Source: Escherichia coli (GTDB taxonomy: Bacteria; Pseudomonadota; Gammaproteobacteria; Enterobacterales; Enterobacteriaceae). From it: a stretch of 64,000 bases of DNA. Positions 5,679 to 53,792 of the stretch are shown piece after piece. Numbering within the stretch: the first letter of the stretch is position 1; every line of letters begins with the position of its first letter. The notes below the pieces were generated by a model. The model ran no database searches. It was given only the letters and a program-made list of their open reading frames with translations, and was not told where the DNA came from. The stretch lies in the NCBI RefSeq assembly GCF_048403405.1, contig NZ_CP183129.1, one strand, 5' to 3'. A program made the translations under genes and the position numbers.

Positions 5679-7616
5679 TCAGTAACGACGTCCCCATTCC
5701 GTGGCGCTCATCAATGTCGGTTTATCCCCCATGAAATAGCGGTAGTAAGCGTCATAAGCCAGCACGTTCTTCACATAACCGCGCGTCTCGGAAAACGGAA
5801 TACTCTCGACGAATGCCACTGCGTCGATACGCCCGGCGCTGTTGCCAAGCCAGGTTCGCACCCGGCCTGGTCCGGCGTTATAAGCTGCTGAGGAGAAAAT
5901 ACGGTTATTACCAAACTGCTGATAAACATATTGCAGGTAACTGGTGCCAATGTTGATGTTCGTTTCCGGATCCAGCAATTGTCCTGGGCTGCTATAACCA
6001 GGAATAGAGAACATCTTCACCGTATGGGTCGCCGTGCCCGGCATAATCTGCATCAGGCCGCTGGCCCCTACCGGTGATTTCACTTTCGGATTCCAGGCGC
6101 TCTCCTGACGGGCAATCGCCATCGCATAGCTTTGCGGGATCTCCTTCCCACTGGTGTAACGTTTGAAAAGATCGTTGTAAGCCAGCGGGAATCGCTCTTC
6201 CAGATGATCCCATAGCTTCCCGGCGATCGTTGCCTGAACGCTAAGATCCCACCATTGGTTATTGAAAGCATACCGAGCCAGTTGCGCCTGCTCTGTTTTT
6301 GACTTGCTCTTCACCAGATTGGCCCACTCGCTACGCGCGGTGTTATCGAGATTCCAGTACATCAACTCGCGCACGCGCGCCATCTCCGGCCCCTGAGTCA
6401 GCGTGCTGTCAACATTCTGCGGCGCTTTATCAATCTTCAGCTCATACTCTTCTCCGATGCGTTGTGCTGCAACCATTGGGTAGAAACCACGCTGTTGCAT
6501 GAGTTGATGCAAAATCTCTTTCGCTTCAGCTTCACGTCCGCGTTCCAGCAGTAAATCCGCCTGCCAGTAACGCCATTCATCTTTCTCTTTCGCCTCCATC
6601 GGCAAACGCGCCAGCCAGGTATTCAGGCCGCGACGATCGCCGGTGCCAAGCGCCATTCGCACACGGCGTTCAATAAGCGAAGTAGATTGCGAACGCATAA
6701 TGGCGTCATCACGCCATTTCGCCTGCTCGTCGGTGACATCGTTGCCCATCAAACGCCAGGCGACGATATCGCGCAGCTCCTGAATCTGATCTTCATTAAG
6801 CTGCTGCGCCTGGGCAAGCGACGGGATCATCAGCCGTGCATTTTCAGCATCCTGCCGCGCCACACTGGCAAACGCCACCGCCGCCATTTGACGGGTAAAA
6901 TCGGTCGCTCCGGTTGTACGCGCGAAGGTCAGTACCGTATTAGGGTTGTTCGCCAGTGAAATGATTGCCGAGGCGATAGTCTGGTAATCGGCAGGCATCT
7001 GCCCTGCCAGCACTGTTACCAGGCCAGTGTTACCCGCTTTCATCGCCAGACGGATACGCTCTAAATACGCCAGCGGATCTTGTTTACCTGACGCACGCCA
7101 GACGCTAAATAACTTGTCACAGGCGTTAGGCTGGCTCTTGCCGGTTAGCCACAGCTCTTTCGCCCCTTGCCAGGCTTCTTCACTCTGCCCGGTGTTCCAT
7201 TTCGCATAGTAGTAATTACATTGCGCTTCGGTAGTTCCGGGCTTTTCCGGGCTAAAGGCTAACAAGCCACGCCAGTCTTCACGCCGCGCCAGTTCATTGA
7301 CGAAACGAGATTGCAGCGTGCGAGCGGGAGGAAGCGTGGGGTTAGCGCGAACAAAGTTAGTGACCGTCACCGCCGGTTGATTCATCAGGTCATCGGTGAT
7401 CTGACGGTATTCCAGGTAGGGATAAAGCGGATAATCCTTCAGTCCAGGCATCATTTGTTCGACCACATCCATTTGTCGATTATCCCAGGCCTGCTTGATT
7501 TGGGCGTAGCGGCTACGCTGCTCATCCAGTGAGTCGGCTCGCGCCACGCTGCTGACCGTCAGCAGACAGACACCGGCAGCCAACAGCCGCCAGGTAACTT
7601 GTTTGGCTTTTTCCAC
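5679..7616 (-). CDS. slt: soluble lytic murein transglycosylase Slt70
   Basis: 645 aa from a GTG start (ORF track extends to 7646); signal peptide then superhelical and lysozyme-like domains. Confidence 0.92.
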   Translation of the reverse strand: MEKAKQVTWRLLAAGVCLLTVSSVARADSLDEQRSRYAQIKQAWDNRQMDVVEQMMPGLKDYPLYPYLEYRQITDDLMNQPAVTVTNFVRANPTLPPARTLQSRFVNELARREDWRGLLAFSPEKPGTTEAQCNYYYAKWNTGQSEEAWQGAKELWLTGKSQPNACDKLFSVWRASGKQDPLAYLERIRLAMKAGNTGLVTVLAGQMPADYQTIASAIISLANNPNTVLTFARTTGATDFTRQMAAVAFASVARQDAENARLMIPSLAQAQQLNEDQIQELRDIVAWRLMGNDVTDEQAKWRDDAIMRSQSTSLIERRVRMALGTGDRRGLNTWLARLPMEAKEKDEWRYWQADLLLERGREAEAKEILHQLMQQRGFYPMVAAQRIGEEYELKIDKAPQNVDSTLTQGPEMARVRELMYWNLDNTARSEWANLVKSKSKTEQAQLARYAFNNQWWDLSVQATIAGKLWDHLEERFPLAYNDLFKRYTSGKEIPQSYAMAIARQESAWNPKVKSPVGASGLMQIMPGTATHTVKMFSIPGYSSPGQLLDPETNINIGTSYLQYVYQQFGNNRIFSSAAYNAGPGRVRTWLGNSAGRIDAVAFVESIPFSETRGYVKNVLAYDAYYRYFMGDKPTLMSATEWGRRY

Positions 7617-9650: not shown

Positions 9651-10536
9651 ATTCACCGCGCAGGATCTGGCGGAAATGGGAAACCAGCGGACGTTGGTTG
9701 GCTTTATGCCAGGCTGCCCATAATTGCGTTGAATAATTCATCCACGGCAATTCACGTAATACCACCCCTTCCGGCGCATTATGACGAAGACTATGTTGAA
9801 TTAAGGCCAGACCTAATCCCGCAGCGACCAGACCTAATGCCGTGAGGGGTTCACCAGCTTCCAGGCGAATATCAGGATTAAACCCGGCATTAACACAGGC
9901 GGCGACAAAATGATCGCGAGAATGCGCATCGTCGTTATGAATCACCGCAATCCACTGCTCATCGCCAAGTTGTGACGCGACAAGGTTTTCCTCCTGCGCC
10001 AGAGGATGATTTTGCGGTAAGGCCAACAACATTCGATCATCCAGAACCTGAATATATTCCAGATCCTGCTCGCTGTCGGTGGGCGGCGTATCGACCAGAG
10101 AAAAATCGAGACTGCGCTGGCGAAGGCCTTCAATCTGGGTCGCCGGTGGTTGGCTGTAAAGTGCGATATGCACATTCGGACGCGATACACGTAACGTACG
10201 TAGCGCCGTAGAAAGCACACCGGAATGCATGGCGTTTTCGATATAGCCAATACACAAGCCACCATCTTCCCCCCGTCCCAGGCGTTTGCCTAACGACTCC
10301 AGGCGGTTGGCGTGTGTCAGCAACGAACGTGTTTCGGCAAGGAATGTCTGTCCATCAGCGGTCAGGCGAATGCGCTGCTGATTACGCTCAAACAGCGTCA
10401 GCCCCAGCCGTTCTTCCAGTTGCGCAATCTGGCGGCTCAGCGGTGATTGCGAGATATGTAATCGCTCGGCTGCGCGTCCCACGTGCTCTTCTTCTGCGAC
10501 CACCACGAAGTACTTCAGTTGGCGTAAATCAATCAT
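9649..10536 (-). CDS. LysR-family transcriptional regulator (island gene)
   Basis: N-terminal HTH MIDLRQLKYFVVVAEEEHVGRAAERLHISQSPLSRQI; ORF track start 10665 is likely an upstream extension; divergent from the AKR gene. Confidence 0.8.
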   Translation of the reverse strand: MIDLRQLKYFVVVAEEEHVGRAAERLHISQSPLSRQIAQLEERLGLTLFERNQQRIRLTADGQTFLAETRSLLTHANRLESLGKRLGRGEDGGLCIGYIENAMHSGVLSTALRTLRVSRPNVHIALYSQPPATQIEGLRQRSLDFSLVDTPPTDSEQDLEYIQVLDDRMLLALPQNHPLAQEENLVASQLGDEQWIAVIHNDDAHSRDHFVAACVNAGFNPDIRLEAGEPLTALGLVAAGLGLALIQHSLRHNAPEGVVLRELPWMNYSTQLWAAWHKANQRPLVSHFRQILRGE

Positions 10537-17542: not shown

Positions 17543-18394
17543 TTAAACACGAGGCATATAGGTCTGATTCCGATATTCAATTGGAGTCAGACCTTTTAAT
17601 TTCAGGCTAATTCTTCTGCTGTTGTAGTATTCAATATATTCCGTAACAGCATCCTTCAGTTCGCTTATATTACTGAACTCATCAAGATAAAAACACTCCG
17701 ACTTTAAGGTTCCAAAGAAACACTCCACCACAGCATTATCCAGACAATTGCCTTTTCTGGACATGCTTTGTTTAATACCATGTTCTTTAAGGATATTTTG
17801 ATATCTTCTCATACGATACTGCCATCCCTGGTCAGAGTGCAGAACAGGATGCTCGTGAGGATTAAGCTTTTTGAATGCCTGATCGAGCATATTCTCAACC
17901 ATGTTCATCACTGGTCTTTCCGAAAGGCTGTAAGAAATAACTTCGTTGTTGAAGAGATCTATTACTGGAGACAAATACAGCTTGCGCCCATTGACTACAA
18001 ATTCAGTAACATCGGTAACCCACTTCTCGTTTGGCCGCGTAGCCTTGAAATCTCTTTGGAGAACATTAGGGGCGGTTTGCCCTACCTCTCCTCTGTAAGA
18101 GCGGTATCGCTTGACCTTAATCGCTGCTTTAAGTGAGAGGGTTCCCATCAGGCGCTGAACAGCTTTATGGTTAATCTGTTTCCCTTCTCGATGAAGAGAC
18201 AGCGTTACCCTACGGTATCCGTATCGGCCTCTATTCTCGTGATAAATCTCACCAATACGCTTTTTAACGTCCGCATACTTGTCAGGCTTGCTGAGAGCCT
18301 TTAGATGGTAATAAAACGTACTGCGCGGTATCTCCGCAGCCCTGAGAAGCTCATCAAGAGGATAAAACTGCCTTAGCTCGTTGAGTACTTTTAC
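17543..18394 (-). CDS. insK: IS150 transposase orfB (InsK), expressed by -1 frameshift from orfA
   Basis: DDE-type integrase core (ORF track shows 201 aa C-terminal part from internal Met); upstream extent approximate. Confidence 0.8.
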
Positions 18395-33038: not shown

Positions 33039-33067
33039 TGACACTGTTTATTCATACAGTTAAAAAT
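33039..33067 (+). promoter_or_regulatory. sigma70-like promoter for the dinI-like gene
   Basis: TTGACA (33039-33044), 17-bp spacer, AAAAAT (33062-33067). Confidence 0.5.
33045..33060. promoter_or_regulatory. LexA box 1 (SOS box)
   Basis: CTGTTTATTCATACAG fits CTGT-N8-ACAG; lies in promoter spacer. Confidence 0.65.
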
Positions 33068-33071
33068 AACA

Positions 33072-33087
33072 CTGTATACAAACACAG
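33072..33087. promoter_or_regulatory. LexA box 2 (SOS box)
   Basis: CTGTATACAAACACAG fits CTGT-N8-ACAG; 16 bp upstream of dinI-like ATG. Confidence 0.7.
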
Positions 33088-33102: not shown

Positions 33103-33351
33103 ATGCGTATTGAGATCTGCATAGCCAAAGAGAAAATGACTAAAATGCCAAACGGTGCTGTGGATGCGTTAAAGGAAGAATTAACTCGACGCATCAGTAA
33201 GCGTTATGACGATGTAGAGGTGATCGTAAAAGCCACCAGCAACGATGGCCTTTCTGTTACGCGCACCGCCGATAAAGATTCAGCTAAAACTTTTGTTCAG
33301 GAAACTCTGAAAGATACCTGGGAGTCTGCTGACGAGTGGTTTGTTCACTAA
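33103..33351 (+). CDS. DinI-family protein (prophage-borne DinI homologue)
   Basis: 82 aa [31 protein letters not shown]...[11 protein letters not shown]; C-terminal WESADxWF motif as in DinI. Confidence 0.85.
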
Positions 33352-33417
33352 TTAACACGTAAAATCGGTAACGGCTGGAAATCATTCAATACTCGCACTA
33401 TCGGAAGTTCACCAGCC

Positions 33418-33460
33418 AACCGCAGCACGTTCTTGCATACGACGTGTCTGCGGTTTTTCA
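33418..33460 (+). terminator. probable intrinsic terminator after dinI-like gene
   Basis: Imperfect stem CCGCAGCACGT...ACGTGTCTGCGG followed by TTTTTC. Confidence 0.5.
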
Positions 33461-33777
33461 ACCATTCAGATACAGCACTCTCATCACATTCATTCTTCCG
33501 CATTAAAGTATATATGACCATATCACCTTAATATTTTTCTTCTTCAGATAAAAATTGTTATCTATGTATACTTTTAAACCGAATCCGTGTAGAGTCTCTA
33601 CCTAAGTTAGTTCACAGCTACCCCTTCAGTTTGCGCCATTAACTTCCTGACTTTTGCCGCTATCTGTAAGCATTCCTGTATACCTGAAACTACAGGGTTC
33701 ATCTACGAACTTTAAGAACACCCAGGATAAAAATTGTCAACTATATTATATATAACACCATACTAATTCGAGGCTAT

Positions 33778-33891
33778 ATGGACAGCATACTGATAATCAC
33801 TTCACTACTTATCATATTCAGCATTTTTAGTCATGCTCTAATAAAATTAGGGGTTGGCATATCCAATAACCCGGACAAAACCGATGTATAA
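33778..33891 (+). CDS. unlisted 37-codon ORF encoding a hydrophobic peptide (hypothetical small membrane protein)
   Basis: GAGG 4 nt upstream of ATG; [37 protein letters not shown]: one predicted TM helix plus polar tail; too short for the ORF track. Confidence 0.35.
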
Positions 33892-33959
33892 GTCAACATA
33901 TCCTGAATCAGACATACAATATTGCAATGAAAACCAATAATATTTTAAGGAATATCTTC

Positions 33960-34193
33960 ATGAAATCAAATGACACCCTAAAGTGGTTCCCCGCGCAGCT
34001 TCCTGAAGTCAGAATTATCCTGGGAGATGCTGTCGTGGAAGTGGCAAAACAGGGAAGACCTATCAATACCAGAACATTGCTTGATTACATTGAAGGAAAC
34101 ATAAAGAAAAAGTCATGGCTGGATAACAAAGAATTATTACAAACAGCGATATCAGTTCTTAAAGACAACCAAAATTTAAATGGTAAAGTGTAA
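33960..34193 (+). CDS. YdfK/YnaE-like prophage protein (so-called cold-shock-induced family; function unknown)
   Basis: 77 aa from MKSNDTLKWFPAQLPEVRIILG..., AAGGA RBS; recalled similarity to Rac/Qin ynaE/ydfK, which sit beside pin genes. Confidence 0.6.
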   Translation: MKSNDTLKWFPAQLPEVRIILGDAVVEVAKQGRPINTRTLLDYIEGNIKKKSWLDNKELLQTAISVLKDNQNLNGKV

Positions 34194-34573
34194 TAAACAC
34201 CCCCTGAAAAATAATTTTTCAATGCATTAAAAAATATCAACAACTACGTTATTCCGCAACAACCTACTTTTTTTACCATTTTTCCACTTTAACAACTTTT
34301 TGCTCCACTTTTCCAAGACCAAACAAATTGAAATCTGGCTAAAACAACATACAACACTATTATTCGTCTTTCTCGAGTCCGCCCGGAGTTCGAAAAACAA
34401 ACCGAGTTAAAGCCATTTTTCAAAAAATCGATTTTAGGTTACACCAAAATTACGGGACTGCATCCAAATTTGTTTATTTTCGAACGTATACATACAAATA
34501 TGTGCAATAATAAGCGAAATAATTTTTGGATATGCATTATGATATGTACACCAATTTCGTATAGAGTCTCACT

Positions 34574-35164
34574 ATGTCTCGAATTTTTGCTTACTGTCGG
34601 ATATCAACTCTGGATCAGACCACCGAAAATCAACGCCGGGAAATCGAAAGTGCAGGCTTTAAAATCAAACCTCAGCAAATAATCGAAGAACACATTAGCG
34701 GCTCAGCAGCAACCAGTGAGCGTCCTGGTTTTAACCGGTTGCTTGCTCGCCTGAAATGTGGTGATCAATTGATTGTGACAAAACTGGATCGCCTTGGTTG
34801 TAATGCAATGGATATCAGGAAAACAGTGGAACAACTGACCGAAACAGGTATCAGAGTGCATTGCTTAGCATTGGGGGGCATTGACCTGACCAGTCCAACA
34901 GGAAAAATGATGATGCAAGTAATTTCAGCAGTCGCTGAATTTGAACGAGACCTTTTACTTGAACGCACTCATTCCGGGATAGTAAGAGCCCGGGGCGCAG
35001 GGAAACGTTTTGGTCGACCACCTGTGTTAAATGAAGAACAGAAACAGGTGGTATTCGAACGAATTAAGTCAGGTGTAAGTATAAGTGCCATTGCCCGGGA
35101 ATTCAAAACCTCGCGGCAAACCATTTTAAGAGCCAAAGCAAAACTTCAGACACCTGACATATAA
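34574..35164 (+). CDS. pin: serine recombinase, Pin-type DNA invertase (PinR/PinQ-like)
   Basis: 196 aa; catalytic Ser region [15 protein letters not shown] motif, C-terminal HTH. Confidence 0.88.
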
Positions 35165-35391
35165 AAAATAATCTCGGTGTGAGATGCTTTACGTCTTCCA
35201 AGCCCCCTTCCTTGCCGTAAATGGAAAGATACATCTAATTATAGAATTTATATGTTTTACCCTACGGCAGTGCTGGCCATTCAATATCCTGTGCAGTTGA
35301 CGTATCAACACGGTTCAGCAACACCCGATACTTTTTCCAGGCTTCCAGCAACGGGGTTTCTTCCTCCGTTGCATATACAGCTCACCTTTTT

Positions 35392-35688
35392 TCACCCACG
35401 ATTAACCAACAGCCAGACCAGCAGACACGCCACCACCGGCACAGCAAAATCCATCAGGCTTGCCACATCCCACACGCGCGGATCAAAACCGCCCCACCAC
35501 GGCATGTTAATCCTCTTGCCATGCCCAAACATTTCAATCCAGCGATATTCCGCCTGGGTGTGTTCACGCGCAATGAAGAACGTACAACCGGCTATCGCCC
35601 CGTAAGCCCAGTTCCCGGTAAAAAGACCAACCAGTAGCTGCGCAGCCACAGCACAAAGCGCATGAAGGAAAGGTGTTATATCCATTTT
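35392..35688 (-). CDS. small 3-TM inner-membrane protein of unknown function (prophage accessory)
   Basis: MKMDITPFLHALCAVAAQLLVGLFTG...; three hydrophobic helices; between tail-fibre module and pin. Confidence 0.55.
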   Translation of the reverse strand, partial: KMDITPFLHALCAVAAQLLVGLFTGNWAYGAIAGCTFFIAREHTQAEYRWIEMFGHGKRINMPWWGGFDPRVWDVASLMDFAVPVVACLLVWLLVNRG

Positions 35689-44377: not shown

Positions 44378-45018
44378 TTGTCGGTATACCTCTCTCGTTT
44401 GCTCAGTTGTTCAGGAATATGGTGCAGCAGCTCGCCGTCACCACAGTAAATGGCGGCATGATTCGGCACCGATGAACCAAAGCAGCACAGCAGCACGTCG
44501 CCAGGCTGCGCCTCTGTCAGTGCGACACGGTAAAAACCAGTCGCCTCCATATTGTCAAGATAGAGATTCTGACCGTTACGCCACCAGTCATCCCCGCGAT
44601 GAAAATCCGGCATCTCAATCCCCGCCAGATGATAAGCATCCCGGAACAGCGTGTAACAGTCCGTCACCCCGTGCTCAAAGCGACGCCCGGTGAGATGCGG
44701 CACACAGCGGAACTTGTGAATCGCCCCCCGGCAGACCAGCCACCACGGCAAATCACTCTGCACCTGCAGCCGCCGGTCAGCCTCACTCAGCCAGGGCAGA
44801 CCACCGGGATGACTGTGGACCAGTGCCACAATCTCACCCTGCATCTCTGCCTGCAGCCAGTCCTCCGGAGCCATCCGGAAATAATCCTCCGGCTCACCGG
44901 AGATATTCACGCAGGGAAAATATCTTTCCCCCTCCGGCGTGCTTACCACGAAGCCGCACGACTCCGCTGGCGCACATCGCCGGGCGTGCGCCAGAATCGC
45001 TGATTCTGTCTCTGTCAT
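44275..45018 (-). CDS. K: tail assembly protein K (NlpC/P60-JAB-like); start approximate
   Basis: MTETESAILAHARRCAPAESCGFVV...HSHPGG motif; overlaps I. Confidence 0.85.
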   Translation of the reverse strand: MTETESAILAHARRCAPAESCGFVVSTPEGERYFPCVNISGEPEDYFRMAPEDWLQAEMQGEIVALVHSHPGGLPWLSEADRRLQVQSDLPWWLVCRGAIHKFRCVPHLTGRRFEHGVTDCYTLFRDAYHLAGIEMPDFHRGDDWWRNGQNLYLDNMEATGFYRVALTEAQPGDVLLCCFGSSVPNHAAIYCGDGELLHHIPEQLSKRERYTDKWQRRTHSLWRHREWHASAFTGICNDLAAASTFV

Positions 45019-45022
45019 GGGA

Positions 45023-45721
45023 TTACTGCGAAAGTTTGTTAATGGAAAGGAAGCCGCCAAAGTTGCCGACGTTATTGCGGAACTTACAGCCACTCAGGCA
45101 TTTGCTGCATTTATCCTTCGTGATATCGAACGTCGGCTGGTCATATTCATCCGCGACCGCCGGACCGCTATAACCGCACTCATCACCGCGATAGGTCCAG
45201 GTGCAGGTGTTGGCCAGCATGATGCGCCCCGGAAAAACAGCACCATCCGTTTCCGTCGGCGTGGACAACACAAAGGAGGCACTGACCGCGCTCAGTTCGC
45301 TGCACTGCTCGACGCGCCAGCGGCTGATCACCTCCTGCTCCGGATCGGCATCGCTGTTTCCGTTGACGAAATTCACCGCATCCAGAAAACGGGCGTAAAC
45401 CTTACGCCTGACCACCGTTCCGCCGACCAGACTCTGCAGATCTTCCACCATCCCGGTGACCATACCGTACAGGTTAGAAACCGTCAGCGTGGGGCGCGTA
45501 CTGGCGCCTTTGCCATTCAGTTCAAAACCGCTCCCCTGAATGGGATACGGCTGATACTGTCGCCCCTGCCAGGTGACCGGCTCACCTTTTTCGTTCTGCT
45601 CATTACAGAAAAAATAACGCTCTCCACCGACCTCTGTCAGATCGATTTCCCAGAGCACCACGCTGGCCGACTGCTCCGCACGGGTGCATTCATTCAGTGT
45701 TTCCTGTTGGATATCCTGCAT
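45023..45721 (-). CDS. L: minor tail protein L
   Basis: 232 aa, lambda L-like, Cys-rich C-terminus. Confidence 0.9.
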   Translation of the reverse strand: MQDIQQETLNECTRAEQSASVVLWEIDLTEVGGERYFFCNEQNEKGEPVTWQGRQYQPYPIQGSGFELNGKGASTRPTLTVSNLYGMVTGMVEDLQSLVGGTVVRRKVYARFLDAVNFVNGNSDADPEQEVISRWRVEQCSELSAVSASFVLSTPTETDGAVFPGRIMLANTCTWTYRGDECGYSGPAVADEYDQPTFDITKDKCSKCLSGCKFRNNVGNFGGFLSINKLSQ

Positions 45722-46050
45722 CAGTTCACCACCTGTTCAAACTCTGCGCTGAACTCAACACGCAACATACTGACCCGCGACGACCATTTTGCGCAGGTCA
45801 CCTTTATCTGCCGGTAGCCATAAGGCGGCGTCCACAGAAAGGCCTTCCAGCCCCCGTGCTCAGCCAGAAACGACTCCAGCGCCGCGGCCTCCCAACGGGG
45901 AACAGAAAGCGTCACGCTGTACGTTTTCAGGTCAGTGTTCAGCCCGGCAGGCGCTCGCTGGGAATAGCCATCACCAAAGCGCACCTTTCTTACGGAAGGG
46001 GCCGAAGCCACATCCATACCGGGTTTCACTTTCCAGCGGAAGGTTTTCAT
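45721..46050 (-). CDS. M: minor tail protein M
   Basis: 109 aa MKTFRWKVKPGMDVASAPSVRKVRFGDGYSQRAPAGLN... Confidence 0.9.
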   Translation of the reverse strand: MKTFRWKVKPGMDVASAPSVRKVRFGDGYSQRAPAGLNTDLKTYSVTLSVPRWEAAALESFLAEHGGWKAFLWTPPYGYRQIKVTCAKWSSRVSMLRVEFSAEFEQVVN

Positions 46051-48608
46051 CGTCCACCTCCGGAGAACAGACCACCATCGCGCATCTGCCCGGTCACAAC
46101 ATCCATTGCCGCCTTACGGGCTACGTCATAAACAGCCTTCAGCGCCTGTGGCCCTATCTGACCGTTCGTGCCGTCGTTGTTAATCACCACATGGTTATTC
46201 TGCTCAAACGTCCCGGACGCCTGCGACCGGCTGTCCGCCATGCTGCCCGGTGTACCGACATAACCACCGGTGGCATAGCCGCGCATCAGCCGGTAGAGAT
46301 TCCCCACGCCAATCCGGCTGGTTGCCTCCTTCGTGAAGACAAATTCACCACGGTGAACAATCCCCGCAGGCTCATATTTGCCGCCGGTTCCCGTAAATCC
46401 CCCGGTCGCAAAATGGAATTTCGCCGCAGCTGCCTGAATGGCTGTACCGCCTGACGCTGATGCGTCACCACCGACAGCACCGCCAATGACACTGCCCACA
46501 CTCCCGACGATCCCCACCATTGCCTGCTTAAGCAGAATTTCTGTCATCATGGACAGCACGGAACGGGTGAAGCTGCGCCAGTTCTGCTCACTGCCGGTCA
46601 GCATCGCCGCCATATTCTGCGCAATACCATCAAAGGTCTGCGTGGCTGCACTTTTAACCTGCGACATACTGTCCGTGGCACTCTCTTTCCACTCGCTCCA
46701 GCCGGACCTGAGGCCTGCCATCCAGTTCCCGCGAAGCAGGTCTTCAGCCGCCCAGGTCTTTTTCTGCTCTGACATGACGTTATTCAGCGCCAGAGGATTA
46801 TCGCCATACTGTTCCTTCAGGCGCTGTTCTGTGGCTTCCCGTTCTGCCTGCCGGTCAGTCAGCCCCCGGCTTTTCGCATCAATGGCGGCCCGTTTTGCCC
46901 GTTGCTGCTGTGCGAATTTATCCGCCTGCTGCGCCAGCGCGTTCAGGCGCTCCTGATACGTAACCTTGTCGCCAAGTGCAGCAAGCTGGCGTTTGTACTC
47001 CAGCGTCTCATCTTTATGCGCCAGCAGGGATTTCTCCTGTGCAGACAGCTGGCGACGTTGCGCCGCCTCCTCCAGTACCGCGAACTGACTCTCCGCCTTC
47101 CACAAATCCCGGCGCTGCTGGCTGATTTTCTCATTTGCTCCGGCATGCTTCTCCAGCGTCCGGAGTTCTGCCTGAAGCGTCAGCAGGGCAGCATGAGCAC
47201 TGTCTTCCTGACGATCGCCCGCAGACACCTTCACGCCGGACTGTTTCGGCTTTTTCAGCGTCGCTTCATAATCCTTTTTCGCCGCCGCCATCAGCGTGTT
47301 GTAATCCGCCTGCAGGATTTTCCCGTCTTTCAGTGCCTTGTTCAGTTCTTCCTGACGGGCGGTATATTTCTCCAGCGGCGTCTGCAGCCGTTCGTAAGCC
47401 TTCTGCGCCTCTTCGGTATATTTCAGCCGTGACGCTTCGGTATCGCTCTGCTGCTGCGCATTTTTGTCCTGTTGAGTCTGCTGCTCAGCCTTCTTTCGGG
47501 CGGCTTCAAGCGCAAGACGGGCCTTTTCACGATCATCCCAGTAACGCGCCCGCGCTTCATCGTTAACAAAATAATCATCCTTGCGCAGATTCCAGATGTC
47601 GTCTGCTTTCTTAAACGCAGCCTCTGCCTTAATCAGCATCTCCTGCGCGGTATCAGGACGACCAATATCCAGCACCGCATCCCACATGGATTTGAATGCC
47701 CGCGCAGTCCTGTCTGCCCAGGTCTCCAGCGTGCCCATGTTCTCTTTCAGGCGGCGGGTCTGGTCATCAAACCCTTTCGTTGCGGCCTCGTTCGCCGCCT
47801 GCAATGCCCCGGCTTCATCGCCGGAACGCTGCAACTGAGCAACATACGCAATCTGCTCCGCCGTCACGTTATGGAACTGGCGTGCCATCGCCGTCAGCCC
47901 CGACGTCGGGTCTGTGGTCAGCTTCCCGAAGGCTTCAGCGACCTTGTCCACCTCCACGCCGGATGCAGAGGAGAAACGCGCCACACTCTGGCTGATGGAC
48001 GCAATCTGAGCCTCACCGCTTACCCCCGCCTTAACCAGTGCGCTGAGTGACTCGCTGGTCTGGTTAAACGTCAGCCCTGCCGCCTGCCCGGCTCTGGACA
48101 GGACCAGCATACGATCTGCCGTCAGTCCCGCCTGATTGCCGGAAAGGACCAGCGTTTTGTTGAAATCGGACAGGGTTGAGTTGCCCTGATACCAGGCATA
48201 CGCCAGTGCACCGGTCGCCACCGCCAGCGAGGTGGCCCCCACCATCGGCAGGGTGATCGCACCGGCAAGCCCCCTGAACATGGGGATCATCCCGCCGAAG
48301 GAGTCCTTCACCTGCCCCCCCTGTTGCAGCAGGATGAGCCACGGATTCTGCCCCCCTGCAAGCTGCGTGGCCACGTCGGTGAACTGTGCAGGCAGCATAC
48401 GCATGGCGGCTTTATACTGCCCGACGGAAATCCCCGCTTTCTGTGCAGCCAGCGCCTGTCGGCTCAGCGACTGTTCAACGACTGCCGCTGTTTTTTTCGC
48501 ATCACTTTCCGTACCGGAAAAATGACGCCTGACTCTGGCCATCTGCTCGTCAAATCTGGCCGCATCCAGACTCAAATCAACGACCAGATCGCCTACCGGT
48601 TCAGCCAT
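46047..48608 (-). CDS. H: tail tape measure protein H
   Basis: 853 aa, coiled-coil rich, lambda H-like. Confidence 0.92.
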   Translation of the reverse strand: MAEPVGDLVVDLSLDAARFDEQMARVRRHFSGTESDAKKTAAVVEQSLSRQALAAQKAGISVGQYKAAMRMLPAQFTDVATQLAGGQNPWLILLQQGGQVKDSFGGMIPMFRGLAGAITLPMVGATSLAVATGALAYAWYQGNSTLSDFNKTLVLSGNQAGLTADRMLVLSRAGQAAGLTFNQTSESLSALVKAGVSGEAQIASISQSVARFSSASGVEVDKVAEAFGKLTTDPTSGLTAMARQFHNVTAEQIAYVAQLQRSGDEAGALQAANEAATKGFDDQTRRLKENMGTLETWADRTARAFKSMWDAVLDIGRPDTAQEMLIKAEAAFKKADDIWNLRKDDYFVNDEARARYWDDREKARLALEAARKKAEQQTQQDKNAQQQSDTEASRLKYTEEAQKAYERLQTPLEKYTARQEELNKALKDGKILQADYNTLMAAAKKDYEATLKKPKQSGVKVSAGDRQEDSAHAALLTLQAELRTLEKHAGANEKISQQRRDLWKAESQFAVLEEAAQRRQLSAQEKSLLAHKDETLEYKRQLAALGDKVTYQERLNALAQQADKFAQQQRAKRAAIDAKSRGLTDRQAEREATEQRLKEQYGDNPLALNNVMSEQKKTWAAEDLLRGNWMAGLRSGWSEWKESATDSMSQVKSAATQTFDGIAQNMAAMLTGSEQNWRSFTRSVLSMMTEILLKQAMVGIVGSVGSVIGGAVGGDASASGGTAIQAAAAKFHFATGGFTGTGGKYEPAGIVHRGEFVFTKEATSRIGVGNLYRLMRGYATGGYVGTPGSMADSRSQASGTFEQNNHVVINNDGTNGQIGPQALKAVYDVARKAAMDVVTGQMRDGGLFSGGGR

Positions 48609-49035
48609 ACCGGACTCCTCCTGCGATCCCTTCTGATACTGTCATCAGCATTACGTCATCCTCCGTCATGTCCGCCACATCCGGGGAAGCGGAGATAACT
48701 TCATTCCCGTCCGGGCCAAAGCGGACACCTCCGGCAAGCCCTGCCGCTTTCTGCATCAGCACATCATCTTCAGGCTCTTCGTCAGCCTCGCGCCGGTTCA
48801 GCAGACTGAAATCCAGCGGATGCATATCCGGATCGCTGAAAAACAGGCTGAGCACGGTGTACGTCAGCCCGGAAAAGTGCATATCCAGCAGAACATCATG
48901 AAAATAATGGGTACTGTAAAAACGGTGCCAGTCGGCATACTCCGTGGATGACATCCCGGCAAGCATGGCACGCCAGTCGGGTCGCCCCATCTCACGCGCC
49001 AGTTTCAGGGCAAAACTCAGCTCACCGTCGAACAC
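48601..49035 (-). CDS. T: tail assembly chaperone T segment (expressed as G-T fusion by -1 frameshift)
   Basis: 144 aa ORF overlapping G end; slippery heptamer GGGAAAG on minus strand at 49034-49040. Confidence 0.85.
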   Translation of the reverse strand: MFDGELSFALKLAREMGRPDWRAMLAGMSSTEYADWHRFYSTHYFHDVLLDMHFSGLTYTVLSLFFSDPDMHPLDFSLLNRREADEEPEDDVLMQKAAGLAGGVRFGPDGNEVISASPDVADMTEDDVMLMTVSEGIAGGVRYG

Positions 49036-49439
49036 TTTCCCGCAGAAACAGGCTCTGCGGGCCCGGCGTCCTCTGTCTGTTCAGGGGCATTATTCACAAC
49101 AAACTCATACATACCGGACAGCCGGTACACCACGTTTTCAGCATGAGAAATTGCCTCTGTAGGCCAGGTGGTAAGCACTTCCTGCTCAATCTGTTTAACG
49201 GCTTCATTCATGGAAGGCATCTGCGTCTTCTGCGGATGGTTATGCCACAGGGACATCGCTACCACAAAAGCACCGGTTCTGATGGCGTCTTCCACAGTAA
49301 ACTTCCGGTTGCTGTCTGACTCCGCCTGTTCTGCCTGCCGTTTCATCAGGGCGAGATGCTCAATACGCTGCAGGGCTGACAGTTCAGAAAGCGTGACGGT
49401 CACACCGTTATGTTCAAATGATTCGGTTTTCAGGAACAT
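49017..49439 (-). CDS. G: tail assembly chaperone G
   Basis: 140 aa MFLKTESFEHNGVTVTLSELSALQRIEHLALM... Confidence 0.9.
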   Translation of the reverse strand: MFLKTESFEHNGVTVTLSELSALQRIEHLALMKRQAEQAESDSNRKFTVEDAIRTGAFVVAMSLWHNHPQKTQMPSMNEAVKQIEQEVLTTWPTEAISHAENVVYRLSGMYEFVVNNAPEQTEDAGPAEPVSAGKCSTVS

Positions 49440-49454
49440 CTCTGACTCTCCGGA

Positions 49455-50195
49455 TTAACTGGCGGTGACGGTGATTTCTGCAACCGCAGCAAACTCACCA
49501 TTACCGGATACGACCGGAATGTTGACCTTACCTGCAGCAACGCCATTCACGGTGATGGTCATACCACTGACCGACACGGTGGCTTTTGTTTTATCCGCTG
49601 ACACCGCACGGAAGCTCTTGTCGGTTGCGCCTTCCGGCTGGAATGCCACGGTCAGCGTGGTGCTCTTCCCTTTCACTACGGAAGCGCTGGCTGGCGTCAC
49701 GGTCATACCGGTTGCCGCTGTTACCGTGCTGCGTTCTTCTGCCATCGACGGACGTCCCACATTGGTGACTTTCACCGTGCGGGTGATCACTTCCTTCGCC
49801 GTCACCGCCTTACCGATACTGCTGACCCAGCCACGGAACACATCGACCGTGCCGTTCGGGAAGCGGATTTTATAGGCACGGGTATCGCCTTCATTAAACC
49901 ACGCCAGCAGCGCCTGCTGCCCCTGCTCTCCGGGCATCCACGCCAGCGTGAAGCTGGTATCTCCGGCAGATTTCTGCCCCTGCCCGGTCGCGGTCCAGTC
50001 TGCATCTTCATCATCGAGATAGCTGTCGTCATAGGACTCAGCGGTCAGTTCGCCGGGCGTCAGGTCTTTAACTTTAGCCAGACGCGACCAGTCAACGTCT
50101 GAAAGCGGGTTCGCATAAGGGTCACCGTTCCCCTTATAAACCCACAGGGTGGTCCCGGCCCCTTTCACCGGCATTACTGGATTTGGTACAGGCAT
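49455..50195 (-). CDS. V: major tail protein V (with C-terminal Ig-like domain)
   Basis: 246 aa [36 protein letters not shown]..., near-identical to lambda V as recalled. Confidence 0.93.
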
Positions 50196-50267
50196 ATCGT
50201 CCTCACATTTCAGGTGATGCTGCCAACTTACTGATTTAGTGTATGATGGTGTTTTTGAGGTGCTCCA

Positions 50268-50543
50268 GTGGCTTCTGTTTCTATCAGCTGTCCCTCCTGT
50301 TCAGCTACTGACGGGGTGGTGCGTAACGGCAAAAGCACCGCCGGACATCAGCGCTATCTCTGCTCTCACTGCCGTAAAACATGGCAACTGCAGTTCACTT
50401 ACACCGCTTCTCAACCCGGTACGCACCAGAAAATCATTGATATGGCCATGAATGGCGTTGGATGCCGGGCAACCGCCCGCATTATGGGCGTTGGCCTCAA
50501 CACGATTTTCCGCCATTTAAAAAACTCAGGCCGCAGTCGGTAA
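50268..50543 (+). CDS. insA: IS1 InsA
   Basis: 91 aa [43 protein letters not shown]... Confidence 0.9.
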
Positions 50544-50965
50544 CCTCGCGCATACAGCCGGGCAGTGACGTCATCGTCTGCGCGGAAATGGACGAACAGT
50601 GGGGATACGTCGGGGCTAAATCGCGCCAGCGCTGGCTGTTTTACGCGTATGACAGGCTCCGGAAGACGGTTGTTGCGCACGTATTCGGTGAACGCACTCT
50701 GGCCACACTGGAGCGTCTTCTAAGCCTGCTGTCGGCCTTTGAGGTCGTGGTATGGATGACGGATGGCTGGCCGCTGTATGAATCCCGCCTGAAGGGAAAG
50801 CTGCACGTAATCAGCAAGCGTTACACTCAGCGAATTGAGCGGCATAACCTGAATCTGAGACAACATCTGGCAAGGCTGGGACGGAAGTCACTGTCGTTCT
50901 CAAAATCGGTGGAGCTGCATGACAAGGTCATCGGGCATTATCTGAACATAAAACACTATCAGTAA
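50462..50965 (+). CDS. insB: IS1 InsB (transposase, made as InsAB by frameshift)
   Basis: 167 aa ORF overlapping insA in -1 frame. Confidence 0.9.
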
Positions 50966-51375
50966 GTTGGAGTCATTACCCACATTTCATAGGTAATGAC
51001 ATAAGTCAGATCGGCTGAACTCCACAGGCCCGCATCATCGTCGCGCCGGTAGTCATAGCCGCTGGCCACCATACTGGTGATCAAATCTGACAGTGCCGGG
51101 ATATCACTCATCACCGGATAAATCCGGGACTCCATCCACTCATCCAGCTCTGAATCCGGCACCTGAGCAGGCAGGAAAACTTCGATATGCAGCTCCGCCT
51201 GCCAGGTATCGCTGTCCAGCTCTTCGCCCGTGTATTCAGCGCCGGTGAGATAAACGGCAACTGCCGGAAAATCCGCCTCATCAAAAACAGCGGGGCGACC
51301 ATCAAAAAACGTCGCCCCGGTGTCATGCTTCTCCAGTGCATCCAGTACGGCTGCACGGAGTTCAGTATGTTTCAT
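50959..51375 (-). CDS. U: tail terminator protein U; C-terminus altered by IS1 (7 extra codons read into IS1)
   Basis: 138 aa [31 protein letters not shown]...; ends ...ITYEM then WVMTPTY encoded by the IS1 end. Confidence 0.88.
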
Positions 51376-51950
51376 CGCTTTATTACCATTCTCAGTTGAT
51401 GCTGCAGCGCATAGCCCAGCTCTTTCGGAAGACGCTCACGCCGTATCCGCTCAATATTTTGTTTAAACGCCGTGGTCAGCGGCACCGCCATCGGGATTTT
51501 CACTACATCAATGGGGTAACGGTTTTTCCCGGCCACACGCTGCATGACATGCCAGCGGCCATTTTTCAGTTGCTGAATAAACGCGCCGGGAATACGACGG
51601 TTTCCCACCACAAGCACGCTGCCGCCACCTTTCAGGGCTGAACGCTGCCCCTTTTTACGACGCCTGCGTCGGGACAGGACAATCCGCGCGTTACCCAGCT
51701 TGATTACGGGCAAATCCCCCCGGTTAACCTTGATTCTGGCCTGCGGATTTTTAACCGTAGCCCTTTTCAGCCTGGCCCTTTCCTTTACCAGTTTCCGGCG
51801 TACCTTTGTCTCACGGGCAACCTGTGACGCCGACTGCGATATCGCGGATGAAGCAACGCGGTTAATGGCCATTGCGGCGGCACCAGGCACCGCCGTTTTG
51901 CTGATACGGCTGAGGTTTTCAACGGCCTGCTCAAGACCTTTTATGGCCAT
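51372..51950 (-). CDS. Z: tail completion protein Z
   Basis: 192 aa, lambda Z-like. Confidence 0.88.
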   Translation of the reverse strand: MAIKGLEQAVENLSRISKTAVPGAAAMAINRVASSAISQSASQVARETKVRRKLVKERARLKRATVKNPQARIKVNRGDLPVIKLGNARIVLSRRRRRKKGQRSALKGGGSVLVVGNRRIPGAFIQQLKNGRWHVMQRVAGKNRYPIDVVKIPMAVPLTTAFKQNIERIRRERLPKELGYALQHQLRMVIKR

Positions 51951-51961
51951 ACATCCCCCTT

Positions 51962-52315
51962 TCAGCGGCGACGGTTAACGGCAGGCGGTACGCCCCGCCC
52001 AAGCCAGAGATGACAGCTTCCGCCATCATCCGGCGAAACACGATCTATCCAGAAGTTTTCCTCACCGATGGTCAGCGTGTCTCCACGCCGCAGTTGCCGC
52101 ACATCATCAGTCCGGACAAACAGGGACGGGCTGGAGCCTTCAACGCGCACGCCCTGTCCGGCATAGCTGATATTTTCAGGGTCATCAAAAACACCACGTA
52201 TCACAGCACCGGACTGCTCACCGGATGTCATGGTGGCTGACGTTCCCATGTACCCGCGTATCGTTTCATCAGCGCGGGCAATGGCAGCATCGAACAGGTT
52301 ATCGAAATCAGCCAC
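51962..52315 (-). CDS. FII: head-tail connector protein FII
   Basis: 117 aa MADFDNLFDAAIARADETIRGYMG... Confidence 0.88.
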   Translation of the reverse strand: MADFDNLFDAAIARADETIRGYMGTSATMTSGEQSGAVIRGVFDDPENISYAGQGVRVEGSSPSLFVRTDDVRQLRRGDTLTIGEENFWIDRVSPDDGGSCHLWLGRGVPPAVNRRR

Positions 52316-52326
52316 AGCGCCTCCCG

Positions 52327-52725
52327 TTATTGCATTCTGGCCAGGCCACGTTCTGTCATTTCGGCTGCCACACCGGCAGAGACACGAAACGCCGTTCCCG
52401 GCAGCACAAATGCCACAGGTTTATCCCGCGTGGCGTGAAGTGCATCAGTATGCAGCGTCACCAGTGCCACGACCGTGACCAGTTCAGCCGTATCCTGAAT
52501 CACGGTATCCGGCTGCGCTGATACAGCCTCATTTTCATGCCCGGTCAGCACATTTTCCGGGCTGAGAGGGGTGTCCTGACCGGCAGTGTCACCCGTGTCA
52601 TCAAGCTCTTCTTCCAGCTCTGCCACACGGAGCGCCAGTTCTTCTTTCGTCCCCGTCAGGCTGACATCACGGTTCAGTTGTTCACCCAGCGAGCGGAGAC
52701 GGGCAATCAGTTCATCTTTCGTCAT
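52327..52725 (-). CDS. FI: DNA packaging protein FI
   Basis: 132 aa from MTKDELIARLRSLGEQLNRDV; ORF track start is 13 codons upstream. Confidence 0.85.
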   Translation of the reverse strand: MTKDELIARLRSLGEQLNRDVSLTGTKEELALRVAELEEELDDTGDTAGQDTPLSPENVLTGHENEAVSAQPDTVIQDTAELVTVVALVTLHTDALHATRDKPVAFVLPGTAFRVSAGVAAEMTERGLARMQ

Positions 52726-52766
52726 GGACTTCTCCACAGAGAGACAATGGCCCCGAAGGGCCATGA

Positions 52767-53792
52767 TTACGCCAGTTGTACGGACACGAACTCATCAGGA
52801 TCAGCCAGCAGCATCAGCGGTGCTGACTGAATCATGGTGAACTCACGCGCCGGATCGCCGGTGGTCACCCAGTTTTTCGGGTAACGGGCAGAGGCGTTAA
52901 TGCCTTCGCGCTGTGCGTCCGCATCCTGAATGCAGCCATAGGTGCGCAGACCGCGAGCCTGAGTGTTCCCCAGCACCATCGTGTTGTCCGGCAGGAAGTT
53001 CTTTTTGACGCCGTTTTCCACGTACTGTCCGGAATACACGACGATGGCCACATCGCCATACATTCCCTTATAGGACACCGCTTTGCCCAGGTCTTTTACC
53101 GCTGTCTCCAGCTCGGAATGAGAGCCGCGACGGGTATCCAGCTTCTCCTTGACGGCTTTGAAGGAACGGAACAGCGCCCAGCCTTTCGGGTCAAACACGA
53201 TGATATTCACCACACCGCTGGCGTTCAGCGCGTAGGCTTCGATATCGTCGGTCGGGTCATACGTGGACTTGTCACGCTTGCTCCACTCCGTGCCGCCGGA
53301 CTGCGTGATGTTATTCGCCTCACTGCGGCCCATATCCACCTCAACCGGATCGAAGGCTTCACCGGTCATGGTATATTTGCCCTTAAGCACGGCAGAAACT
53401 GCCTGCATCTCTTCGACCTGGGCAATCGCCAGATTTTCATCCAGCATATTCTGCCGAATAATACGGCGACGACGGTAAGCCGGGTCAGCCAGGTTCTGCG
53501 GATCTTCATCCGGCAGGCGACGCAGGGTCATCTGCGGATTCACCTCATGCTTGGGTTTGACATAACCCGGCGTAAATTCAGAGGTGGAGCCGCCACGGGA
53601 TCGGATAACCTCACCGGAAACAATCGGCGAAACGTACAGCGCCATGTTTACCAGTCCCGGAATTTGTGAGAGATAGACTTTTTCCGTGGTGAAAGGATAG
53701 GTTTCACGGAAAAACAGGCGCAGAAACAGCGGATCGAACTTAAAGTGATGCTGGGTCGATGCCAGTAATTCTGCAGTTGTATATACAGACAT
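52767..53792 (-). CDS. E: major capsid protein E
   Basis: 341 aa MSVYTTAELLASTQHHFKFDPLFLRLFFRE..., lambda E. Confidence 0.95.
   Translation of the reverse strand: MSVYTTAELLASTQHHFKFDPLFLRLFFRETYPFTTEKVYLSQIPGLVNMALYVSPIVSGEVIRSRGGSTSEFTPGYVKPKHEVNPQMTLRRLPDEDPQNLADPAYRRRRIIRQNMLDENLAIAQVEEMQAVSAVLKGKYTMTGEAFDPVEVDMGRSEANNITQSGGTEWSKRDKSTYDPTDDIEAYALNASGVVNIIVFDPKGWALFRSFKAVKEKLDTRRGSHSELETAVKDLGKAVSYKGMYGDVAIVVYSGQYVENGVKKNFLPDNTMVLGNTQARGLRTYGCIQDADAQREGINASARYPKNWVTTGDPAREFTMIQSAPLMLLADPDEFVSVQLA

Follow-up and report, generated by a model that had tools for sequence, protein, structure and literature searches.

Do the repeated and dyad-symmetric motifs that flank the cold-shock gene ydfK and the recombinase gene pin in an Escherichia coli prophage mark out a segment on which Pin acts, or do they belong to the control regions of the genes beside them? 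The motifs lie in non-coding DNA of contig NZ_CP183129.1 (assembly GCF_048403405.1), of which a stretch of 64,000 nucleotides (nt), referred to here as the window, was analysed. A preliminary description of the window had proposed that they could be operators or degenerate recombination sites defining a segment acted on by Pin. We consider it likely that they are ordinary conserved cis-regulatory DNA of the ynaM/ynfT–ydfK–pin module, not a pair of recombination sites, and that the motif nearest pin consists of the end of the surviving half-site of an eroded res site and the leader of pin. Read in this way, the motifs would be control DNA of a very common prophage module and would define no mobile or invertible segment. 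The answer bears on the K-12 proteins PinQ and PinR, classed by name and in practice as Hin-type invertases, and on an anti-phage mechanism that a 2025 paper derives from inversion catalysed by PinQ at e14 sites (Kirigo et al. 2025, PMC12529663). The comparative evidence points otherwise, the closest relatives of PinQ and PinR being transposon and plasmid resolvases with canonical res sites. It raises the question of whether PinQ/PinR is an enzyme or a regulator descended from one, and the locus would be an example of a transposon resolution module captured and degraded in a phage accessory region.

Upstream of pin are ~115 bp that align column by column with the three-subsite res array of Pin homologues from five genomes (Erwinia, Shewanella, Photorhabdus, an Oxalobacteraceae genome and Zongyanglinia; 59–78% identity). 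At each of these five loci an array of GTmCGAAA/TTTCGkAC half-sites stands upstream of the gene at fixed distances from the start codon. A 12-2-12 palindrome forms site I and a pair of inverted half-sites separated by 14 nt forms site II; after a TATAAT/TATGAT −10 come the two directly repeated half-sites of site III, which end ~12 nt before the ATG. Local alignment of the pin-upstream DNA with intact res gives a score of 104, against a shuffle mean of 16, and one of the six half-sites scores well. A half-site matrix was built from the five genome loci and then applied to independent ones: the left and right halves of sites I and II (I-L, I-R, II-L and II-R) score 9–18 bits in intact plasmid and transposon loci, as against −1.5 to 6.2 bits in five prophage alleles (those of the window, Qin and Rac, and two alleles ~85% identical), and the right half of site III (III-R) keeps 14.8 bits in each of those five. 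TTTCGTAT (34555–34562), within the right half of site III, is the one Pin-family half-site still in good condition; the half-site at 34552–34563 has the best score in the region (12.9 bits) and the best in the 64-kb window (15.1 bits). The alignment identifies the DNA upstream of pin as an eroded remnant of a Tn3-type res site, which is probably not a working res any more, and the surviving half-site is probably an operator for Pin (Table 1).

A metagenome scan with the site I pattern recovered 11 more loci, each with a Pin homologue (56–80% identical) starting 108–111 nt further on and preceded by the same sites II and III. At four metagenome loci the gene is divergent from an open reading frame (ORF) of ~1,000 aa (truncated in L147), and at a fifth (L128) an ORF of 992 aa lies just downstream; the single large neighbour tested (locus L139, homologue 80% identical) encodes a Tn3-family transposase (DDE_Tnp_Tn3, E = 5.5e-150, plus DUF4158). 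Pin homologues are also carried by 1,858 plasmid records, mostly with 60–84% identity, and the homologue of a K. pneumoniae plasmid (83% identical, L168) has an intact array in which site III and the leader are almost identical to those of the prophage alleles. Owing to the intact arrays and the Tn3 transposase neighbours, we place the Pin subfamily among resolvases with canonical res sites and not among Hin-type invertases. Two arrangements depart from the common pattern. At one metagenome locus (L131, ~10070–10198; homologue 56% identical) all subsites have GGCC where the others have GTAC or GGAC, and the predicted binding sites there co-vary with the protein. In Erwinia oleae (L008, 1865–2067) two divergent paralogous resolvase genes have one central site I and their own sites II and III each, forming a symmetric double res.

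Pin itself, 100% identical to PinR and 99% to PinQ, is a small serine recombinase, its catalytic domain N-terminal and its helix-turn-helix domain C-terminal. It has full-length matches to the gamma-delta, Tn3, Gin and Sin structures, with Gin the best of the solved structures (105 bits; 82 bits for gamma-delta resolvase), and belongs to PHROG 125. The full catalytic set (Y6, R8, S10, D36, R68 and R71 in Tn3 numbering) is incomplete in Pin: Y7, R9, S11 and R73 are present, the position of D36 is Glu throughout the subfamily, and Cys76 stands at the position that aligns with R71 of Tn3 and gamma-delta resolvase. Position 76 is Cys in all five prophage PinQ/PinR-type proteins and Arg in 11 of the 11 relatives with intact res. 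In Tn3 resolvase the substitutions R71A and R71K abolish recombination, with cleavage ~1,000-fold lower and site binding not prevented (Olorunniji and Stark 2009, PMC2794168). With a cysteine for the R71 equivalent, and with erosion of both site I and site II, Pin has probably lost recombination at its own site. Purifying selection continues to act on the gene, dN/dS being 0.37–0.40 between divergent prophage allele groups (window and K-12 versus L032/L034) and 0.16–0.21 in comparison with the plasmid copy. Four more differences between prophage proteins and relatives are fixed (Q35/R, A45/V, K61/E and M113/T).

Tn3 and gamma-delta resolvases regulate their own expression by binding at res. 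Pin would likewise repress itself, by binding what remains of site III, a half-site that overlaps the candidate promoter of pin. The pin locus resembles Tn3/gamma-delta res with TnpR in its ~115-bp upstream array of three subsites ending ~12 nt before the start, in the −10 between the subsites, and in the Tn3-family transposase genes that adjoin Pin relatives of 76–80% identity. It differs in that five of the six half-sites are eroded, the R71 equivalent is Cys, and the gene lies in the accessory region of a lambdoid prophage; the window has no transposase, as no large ORF flanks pin, whose neighbours are ydfK and tail-fibre genes, and no transposon ends were noted in it, though no search aimed at terminal repeats was made. 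The intact relatives differ in turn from gamma-delta, whose site I is 28 bp and whose subsites are all inverted: their site I is 12-2-12 (26 bp), and their site III is a direct repeat.

All four motif instances noted at the outset are present in the window, displaced by 2, 1, 1 and 10 nt from the positions first given. Motif 1, GATAAAAATTGT(T/C)A, lies at 33547–33560 and 33726–33739 (previously 33549 and 33727), with GATAAAAATTGTYA starting at 33547 and 33726, and the pattern has no further occurrence in the window. Motif 2, CGT(G/A)TAGAGTCTC, lies at 33586–33598 and 34558–34570 (previously 33585 and 34548), with the two copies of CGTRTAGAGTCTC starting at 33586 and 34558 as direct repeats. 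The reported palindrome, GTAGAG-T-CTCTAC (GTAGAGTCTCTAC), is found at 33589–33601, and the gap between the second copy of CGTRTAGAGTCTC and the pin ATG (34574), taken to be 7 bp, is 3 nt. Extended beyond these limits, the copies agree at 17 of 19 positions for motif 1 (33547–33565 and 33726–33744) and at 19 of 24 for motif 2 (33575–33598 and 34547–34570).

In an unbiased repeat test with 200 dinucleotide-preserving shuffles of 33352–34573 (1,222 bp, from the stop of the DinI-like gene to the pin ATG), two pairs of 13-mers with at most one mismatch were observed against 0.87 expected, a count reached by 24% of shuffles, and the single pair of 14-mers with at most one mismatch was matched by at least one pair in 27%. 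One pair of 24-mers with at most five mismatches was observed (6.5% of shuffles), as was one pair of 19-mers with at most two (1% of shuffles). The 13- and 14-mer similarity is at chance level, and only the 17/19 extension of motif 1 stands out. Pattern counts over the whole window seem significant solely because the pattern came from the same data, and the p-values of targeted local alignments (0.004 and 0.02) are post hoc.

Copy 2 of motif 2 is a composite, of which the first bases, CGTAT (34558–34562), belong to the half-site TTTCGTAT and the remainder to the pin leader. Its TAGAGTCTC part varies, being TAGAAGATCTC in the ~85% identical alleles, TAGCGTCTC in L020 and CAGAAGATCTC in the intact plasmid copy, and within the leader TAGAGTCTC is a derived state and not the ancestral one. 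Copy 1 keeps TAGAGTCTC unchanged where copy 2 varies, and the two do not co-vary. With the Pin-family matrix copy 1 scores at most 2.6 bits, and its region aligns with intact res at a score of 15 against a shuffle mean of 16 (104 for the pin-upstream control). As the shared leader sequence is variable and derived, and copy 1 is without similarity to res, the likeness of the two copies of CGTRTAGAGTCTC is coincidental. The supposed gix/hix half-site beside copy 1 (TACTTTTAAACC, 33568–33579) matches 7 of 9 generic half-site positions by our own reading, and its dyad partner 2 of 9; because better matches, at 8 or more of 9 positions, occur 14 times in the window, the resemblance is attributed to chance. 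A 13-codon ORF overlapping copy 1 (ATG at 33564) was rejected, having no ribosome-binding site and lying upstream of the predicted start. What holds of the suggestion of operators or degenerate recombination sites concerns one of the four instances, the pin-proximal one, which overlaps a half-site; the other three are not recombination sites.

A segment bounded by the motifs was also sought in other genomes. Deletion and inversion junctions between the two copies of CGTRTAGAGTCTC were built and searched for in all complete E. coli genomes by megablast and sensitive blastn. No inversion junction was present among the places matching half of the query (6,957 and 6,745, in 2,887 and 2,808 genomes), with the limit that genome assemblies cannot exclude rare rearrangements. 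The deletion query was spanned at one place only, the Qin end of strain KR2009 (L006). This is not a deletion between the motifs: it is an unrelated loss of ~274 bp, not site-specific there, that begins just past motif 1 copy 1 and reaches into ynfT, whose 5′ end it removes; both of its endpoints are outside the motif pairs. In the BLAST survey of Kirigo et al. inversions were seen in e14 only and in neither Qin nor Rac, the e14 P segment being inverted in 33% of 562 deposited genomes (PMC12529663). Because the e14 inversion is evident in so large a share of genomes, an invertible or excisable segment at the present locus should have been visible. The 64-kb window contains no Hin-type crossover site (TTNTCNNAAACC type, 12-2-12, 26 bp, inverted pair), the best full site reaching 14 of 18 positions at an unrelated place, and no e14 pix repeats. 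Nor does it contain a second Pin-type site or another res-like half-site array; the only two half-site matches within 60 bp of each other elsewhere are a weak lone pair at 17917/17929 (8.6 and 10.3 bits).

Compared with Hin, Gin, Cin and PinE, Pin belongs to the same protein superfamily, as its best structural match to Gin indicates, and its gene likewise adjoins tail-fibre genes. Its identity to PinE is 38% (PMC12529663). Pin falls short of the ~60% identity expected of a close relative of these invertases and is up to 80% identical to recombinases beside Tn3 transposases; by our own reading of the sequences its recognition helix differs from theirs, and the DNA upstream of its gene has a resolvase-type architecture with accessory sites. 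Inverted 26-bp crossover sites are lacking, as is an invertible segment in thousands of genomes, and the pin locus shows none of the Hin-type inversion features tested. PinQ has been reported to invert the e14 P segment in trans, acting at TTGGTTTGGGAGAAGG repeats (PMC12529663), which are absent from the window and unlike the half-site of the Pin family.

It is exceedingly improbable that the motif pairs are degenerate crossover sites between which Pin deletes or inverts the ynaM–ydfK segment. In favour of it, copy 2 of motif 2 stands immediately before the recombinase gene, a place where Gin, Cin and Pin have their crossover sites and resolvases their res sites; copy 2 overlaps a true Pin-family half-site, and the two copies of motif 2 match at 19 of 24 positions. 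That similarity is nevertheless of chance level (6.5% of shuffles, and 24% for 13-mers), and copy 1, with its low half-site score, lies in a region unlike intact res; the TAGAGTCTC that the copies share is derived and variable, Hin-type sites are lacking, and Pin is without the R71-equivalent arginine. No motif junction occurs among ~6,700–6,950 places, in agreement with the independent survey in which inversions are confined to e14 (PMC12529663), and on these grounds the claim that the pairs bound a segment acted on by Pin is not supported. Also very improbable is that 33556–33601 descends from an old duplicate of the pin promoter and leader and no longer functions. A gapped local alignment does join TATG(T)ATA...CGTRTAGAGTCTC at both places (score 24, 2% of shuffles), and the distance from −10 to motif is similar (14 versus 15 nt), but the alignment is short and post hoc, there is no similarity to the ancestral intact res, the common leader sequence is derived, and the block is better conserved than its flanks.

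Unlikely, in our judgement, is a further possibility in which both GATAAAAATTGT boxes are operators for one regulator (H-NS, Fis, or a phage or module protein such as YdfK) that would co-regulate the upstream and ynaM promoters, possibly in cold shock. The motif 1 box resembles the A/T-rich nucleation motifs of H-NS and the motifs of Fis. Its 17/19 repeat is found in only 1% of shuffles, the non-coding blocks that hold the two copies are the best conserved, Salmonella retains copy 2, and copy 1 is itself a dyad, GATAA-N6-TTATC; H-NS binding has been reported in these spacers (PMC3946193). Copy 2, however, is without the right arm of the dyad, copy 1 is absent from the Salmonella version, and the pattern occurs nowhere else in the window. 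The two copies of motif 1 stand at distances from their −10 that differ by 5 nt, so that a mechanism shared by both would be conjectural.

If the motifs are ordinary cis-regulatory DNA of the module, those of ynaM–ydfK would be parts of the promoters or operators of a cold-shock accessory operon. Motif 1 copy 1 and the palindrome would form a second, upstream promoter or operator region, around the promoter candidate P1, with a leader of ~200 nt running into ynaM–ydfK. The P1 −10 is invariant in 13 distinct module sequences, in which the P1 block, motif 1 copy 2 and the site III region are 92–100% conserved as against 71–82% for other non-coding DNA. In Salmonella P2/Mu-like prophages (L042 and L277), which carry ynaM–ydfK without pin and without motif 1 copy 1, the box of copy 2 stands at the same 52-nt distance from ynaM; a scan of a viral collection for this box returned mostly unrelated A/T-rich matches and one new ynaM locus, L277. 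Motif 1 copy 2 would accordingly belong to the ynaM promoter, and possibly also to that of ydfK, and a regulatory role is plausible for all three motif instances outside the pin leader. Peaks of RNA polymerase in genomic systematic evolution of ligands by exponential enrichment (gSELEX), obtained in vitro in the ynaE–uspF and ydfI–ydfK spacers (PMC5493296), fall at ~33470–33605 by our own coordinate conversion, and RpoD gSELEX gave a constitutive promoter in the ydfK–pinQ and ynaE–pinR spacers (PMC3946193).

Cold induction of ydfK/ynaE, given in the RefSeq annotation and cited in PMC10654059, and the possible long leader from P1 recall the leaders of cspA type. Unlike these, the region has no match to the Rfam cspA thermoregulator; Rfam scans of it gave sub-threshold matches only, with no cspA-type element, and the putative 222-nt leader from P1 has no excess structure, folding no better than shuffles (z = 0.14). 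Other regulators were considered for the motifs and set aside. The LexA boxes of the region belong to the DinI-like gene, a published Fur-site cluster lies at the start of ydfK instead (PMC2189734), and no match to IHF was found in the motifs by eye. The Fur cluster of ydfK/ynaE, predicted by information theory at 17.1 bits (PMC2189734), maps to 33930–33955 by our own coordinate conversion, just upstream of the current ydfK start and away from the motifs. The LexA-box matches (CTGT-N8-ACAG) stand in tandem at 33044–33059 and 33072–33087, overlapping the promoter-like TTGACA-18-AAAAAT of the DinI-like gene; such an arrangement would fit an SOS-induced prophage gene.

Several points weigh against the motifs being regulatory DNA of a module with a disabled recombinase. 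Binding of Pin at site III is deduced from homology, and the promoter roles of the P1, ynaM, ydfK and pin sites are putative. P1 agrees with the consensus at only 9 of 12 positions, and such matches are not enriched (10 found, 7.5 expected); the candidate ynaM −10 has no good −35, and its distance from the motif 1 box differs by 5 nt from that between copy 1 and its nearest −10. Diversity in E. coli is low, with essentially two to three alleles, so that high conservation indicates constraint only weakly. Lastly, overproduced PinQ is reported to drive the e14 P segment to invert (Kirigo et al. 2025, PMC12529663), a result not easily squared with a protein that has lost catalysis, except as an indirect effect.

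An indirect effect would follow if PinQ and PinR were domesticated Tn3-family resolvases that have lost recombination and are kept as DNA-binding proteins, at the remaining half-site or elsewhere, with the e14 inversion catalysed by PinE; the cysteine at the R71 position and the erosion of sites I and II point this way, and we put it forward tentatively, as a possibility with somewhat less than an even chance. In pinE and in pinE pinQ mutants the e14 P segment is locked (PMC12529663). As the pinE mutation locks the segment, PinQ alone is apparently insufficient for inversion, which fits a non-catalytic role. The module itself is already known and annotated, and there is nothing unusual in the motifs. 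Kirigo et al. (PMC12529663) mention neither the resolvase ancestry nor the eroded res nor Cys76, and a literature search found no paper discussing them, although they may be known elsewhere.

Table 1 Features of the ynaM/ynfT–ydfK–pin region, in window coordinates
Feature	Position	Strand	Basis or remark
DinI-like gene	33103–33351		
G+C-rich hairpin followed by T run (CGCAGCACGT...ACGTGTCTGCGGTTTTT)	33421–33460	+	Sequence; left boundary of shared module
Sigma-70-like promoter candidate P1, TTCAGA-18-TATACT	33543–33572	+	Consensus scan, 9/12 matches
Motif 1 copy 1, GATAAAAATTGTTATCTAT	33547–33565	+	Dyad GATAA-N6-TTATC at 33547–33562; overlaps P1; conservation 0.92 (0.78–0.82 in flanking non-coding DNA)
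Motif 2 copy 1, CGTGTAGAGTCTCTAC, with palindrome 33589–33601	33586–33601	+	Starts 14 nt downstream of P1 −10; conservation 0.94
Motif 1 copy 2, GATAAAAATTGTCAACTAT	33726–33744	+	52 nt upstream of ynaM ATG; conservation 0.99
Candidate ynaM −10, TATAAC	33751–33756	+	Putative, from register comparison with Salmonella L042/L277 (CATAAT there)
ynaM ribosome-binding site, GAGG	33770–33773	+	
ynaM/ynfT-family gene, small hydrophobic protein, 37 aa	33778–33891	+	NCBIfam YnaM_YnfT_fam, 60 bits (cut-off 35); RefSeq annotation of identical locus
Promoter-like TCAACA-16-TACAAT before ydfK	33893–33920	+	Consensus scan
ydfK/ynaE cold-shock protein gene, 77 aa	33960–34193	+	RefSeq annotation; PHROG 2718; homologues carry PF27475
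res site I relic (ATCCAAATTTGTTTATTTTCGAAC)	34462–34485	+	Position of 12-2-12 crossover palindrome in intact relatives; 0.2 + 4.2 bits (12–18 in intact)
res site II relic (GTGCAATA-N14-TTTTGGAT)	34502–34531	+	Alignment; −1.0 + 1.5 bits (9–17 in intact)
−35-like hexamer GCGAAA, paired with candidate pin −10	34514–34519	+	
Candidate pin −10, TATGAT (TATAAT in most relatives)	34538–34543	+	Between sites II and III; position kept in all aligned relatives
res site III remnant	34544–34563	+	Right half-site CAATTTCGTATA at 34552–34563; conservation 0.98
Motif 2 copy 2, CGTATAGAGTCTC	34558–34570	+	Site III half-site end and pin 5′ leader with ribosome-binding region
pin, small serine recombinase, 196 aa	34574–35164	+	100% identical to K-12 PinR
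Cys76 codon, TGT	34799–34801	+	Position of conserved arginine of LDRLGR; alignment to Gin

Lying to the right of prfC and osmY, which are on the minus strand, are the DinI-like gene, ynaM/ynfT, ydfK, pin and the tail-fibre genes, the last on the opposite strand beyond pin. RefSeq annotations place the region at the tail-fibre end of a full-length lambdoid prophage that adjoins prfC. From ~33365 to pin it aligns with the end of K-12 Qin (ynfT–ydfK–pinQ), and from ~33414 also with that of K-12 Rac (ynaM–ynaE–pinR); in gene order, in sequence homology and in its place at the tail-fibre end of a lambdoid prophage it is a module of Rac/Qin type. The gene is the same as at the PinQ and PinR loci of K-12, as are the neighbours (ynaM/ynfT, ydfK/ynaE and tail-fibre genes), and the locus is unlike these in lying in a full-length lambdoid prophage beside prfC, with an extra DinI-like gene at its end. 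Of 5,426 complete E. coli genomes, 5,397 match a 2.3-kb query in some part and 2,112 over at least 80% of its length. Phage mEp460 has the module between int and its tail-fibre genes.

The hairpin at the left boundary of the module is probably a bidirectional terminator. A stretch of ~100 bp within 33352–33460, ending in this hairpin, is conserved in ~200 lambdoid phage records (lambda, HK97, HK022-like and Stx phages; matches at query positions 1–105), where it lies at the junction of the tail-fibre or b region with the int side, and 33352–33460 is probably a mosaic boundary as well as a terminator. On the minus strand at the hairpin is a CssrB-like stretch (fold z = −3.4). Its Rfam match is sub-threshold (24 bits against a gathering score of 76) and is explained by a common terminator hairpin, corresponding to the 3′ hairpin of CssrB; no minus-strand promoter for it was convincing by eye, and none is listed in the consensus scan.

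Relative to the K-12 Qin and Rac alleles, ~61 bp are inserted at 34197–34257, directly after the ydfK stop. The spacer between ydfK and pin has the lowest conservation in the module (71%), while the pin coding sequence is 99–100% identical to K-12; because so poorly conserved a spacer adjoins a near-identical coding sequence, the module is mosaic. Just downstream of pin is the remnant of a tail-fibre-assembly gene (35263–35373), overlapped on the minus strand by a sub-threshold Rfam match to IS009 (35296–35394; 65.9 bits against a gathering score of 117). The tail-fibre genes past 35373 are unlike those of Rac and Qin, and comparison of the sequences suggests a module swap just downstream of pin. 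Besides ydfK, the prophage carries cspF, cspB, cspI, ymcF, ynfN and a GnsA/GnsB-family gene at ~45000–53000 (annotation of the identical YDC107 prophage), a concentration of cold-shock genes that is unusual in one phage.

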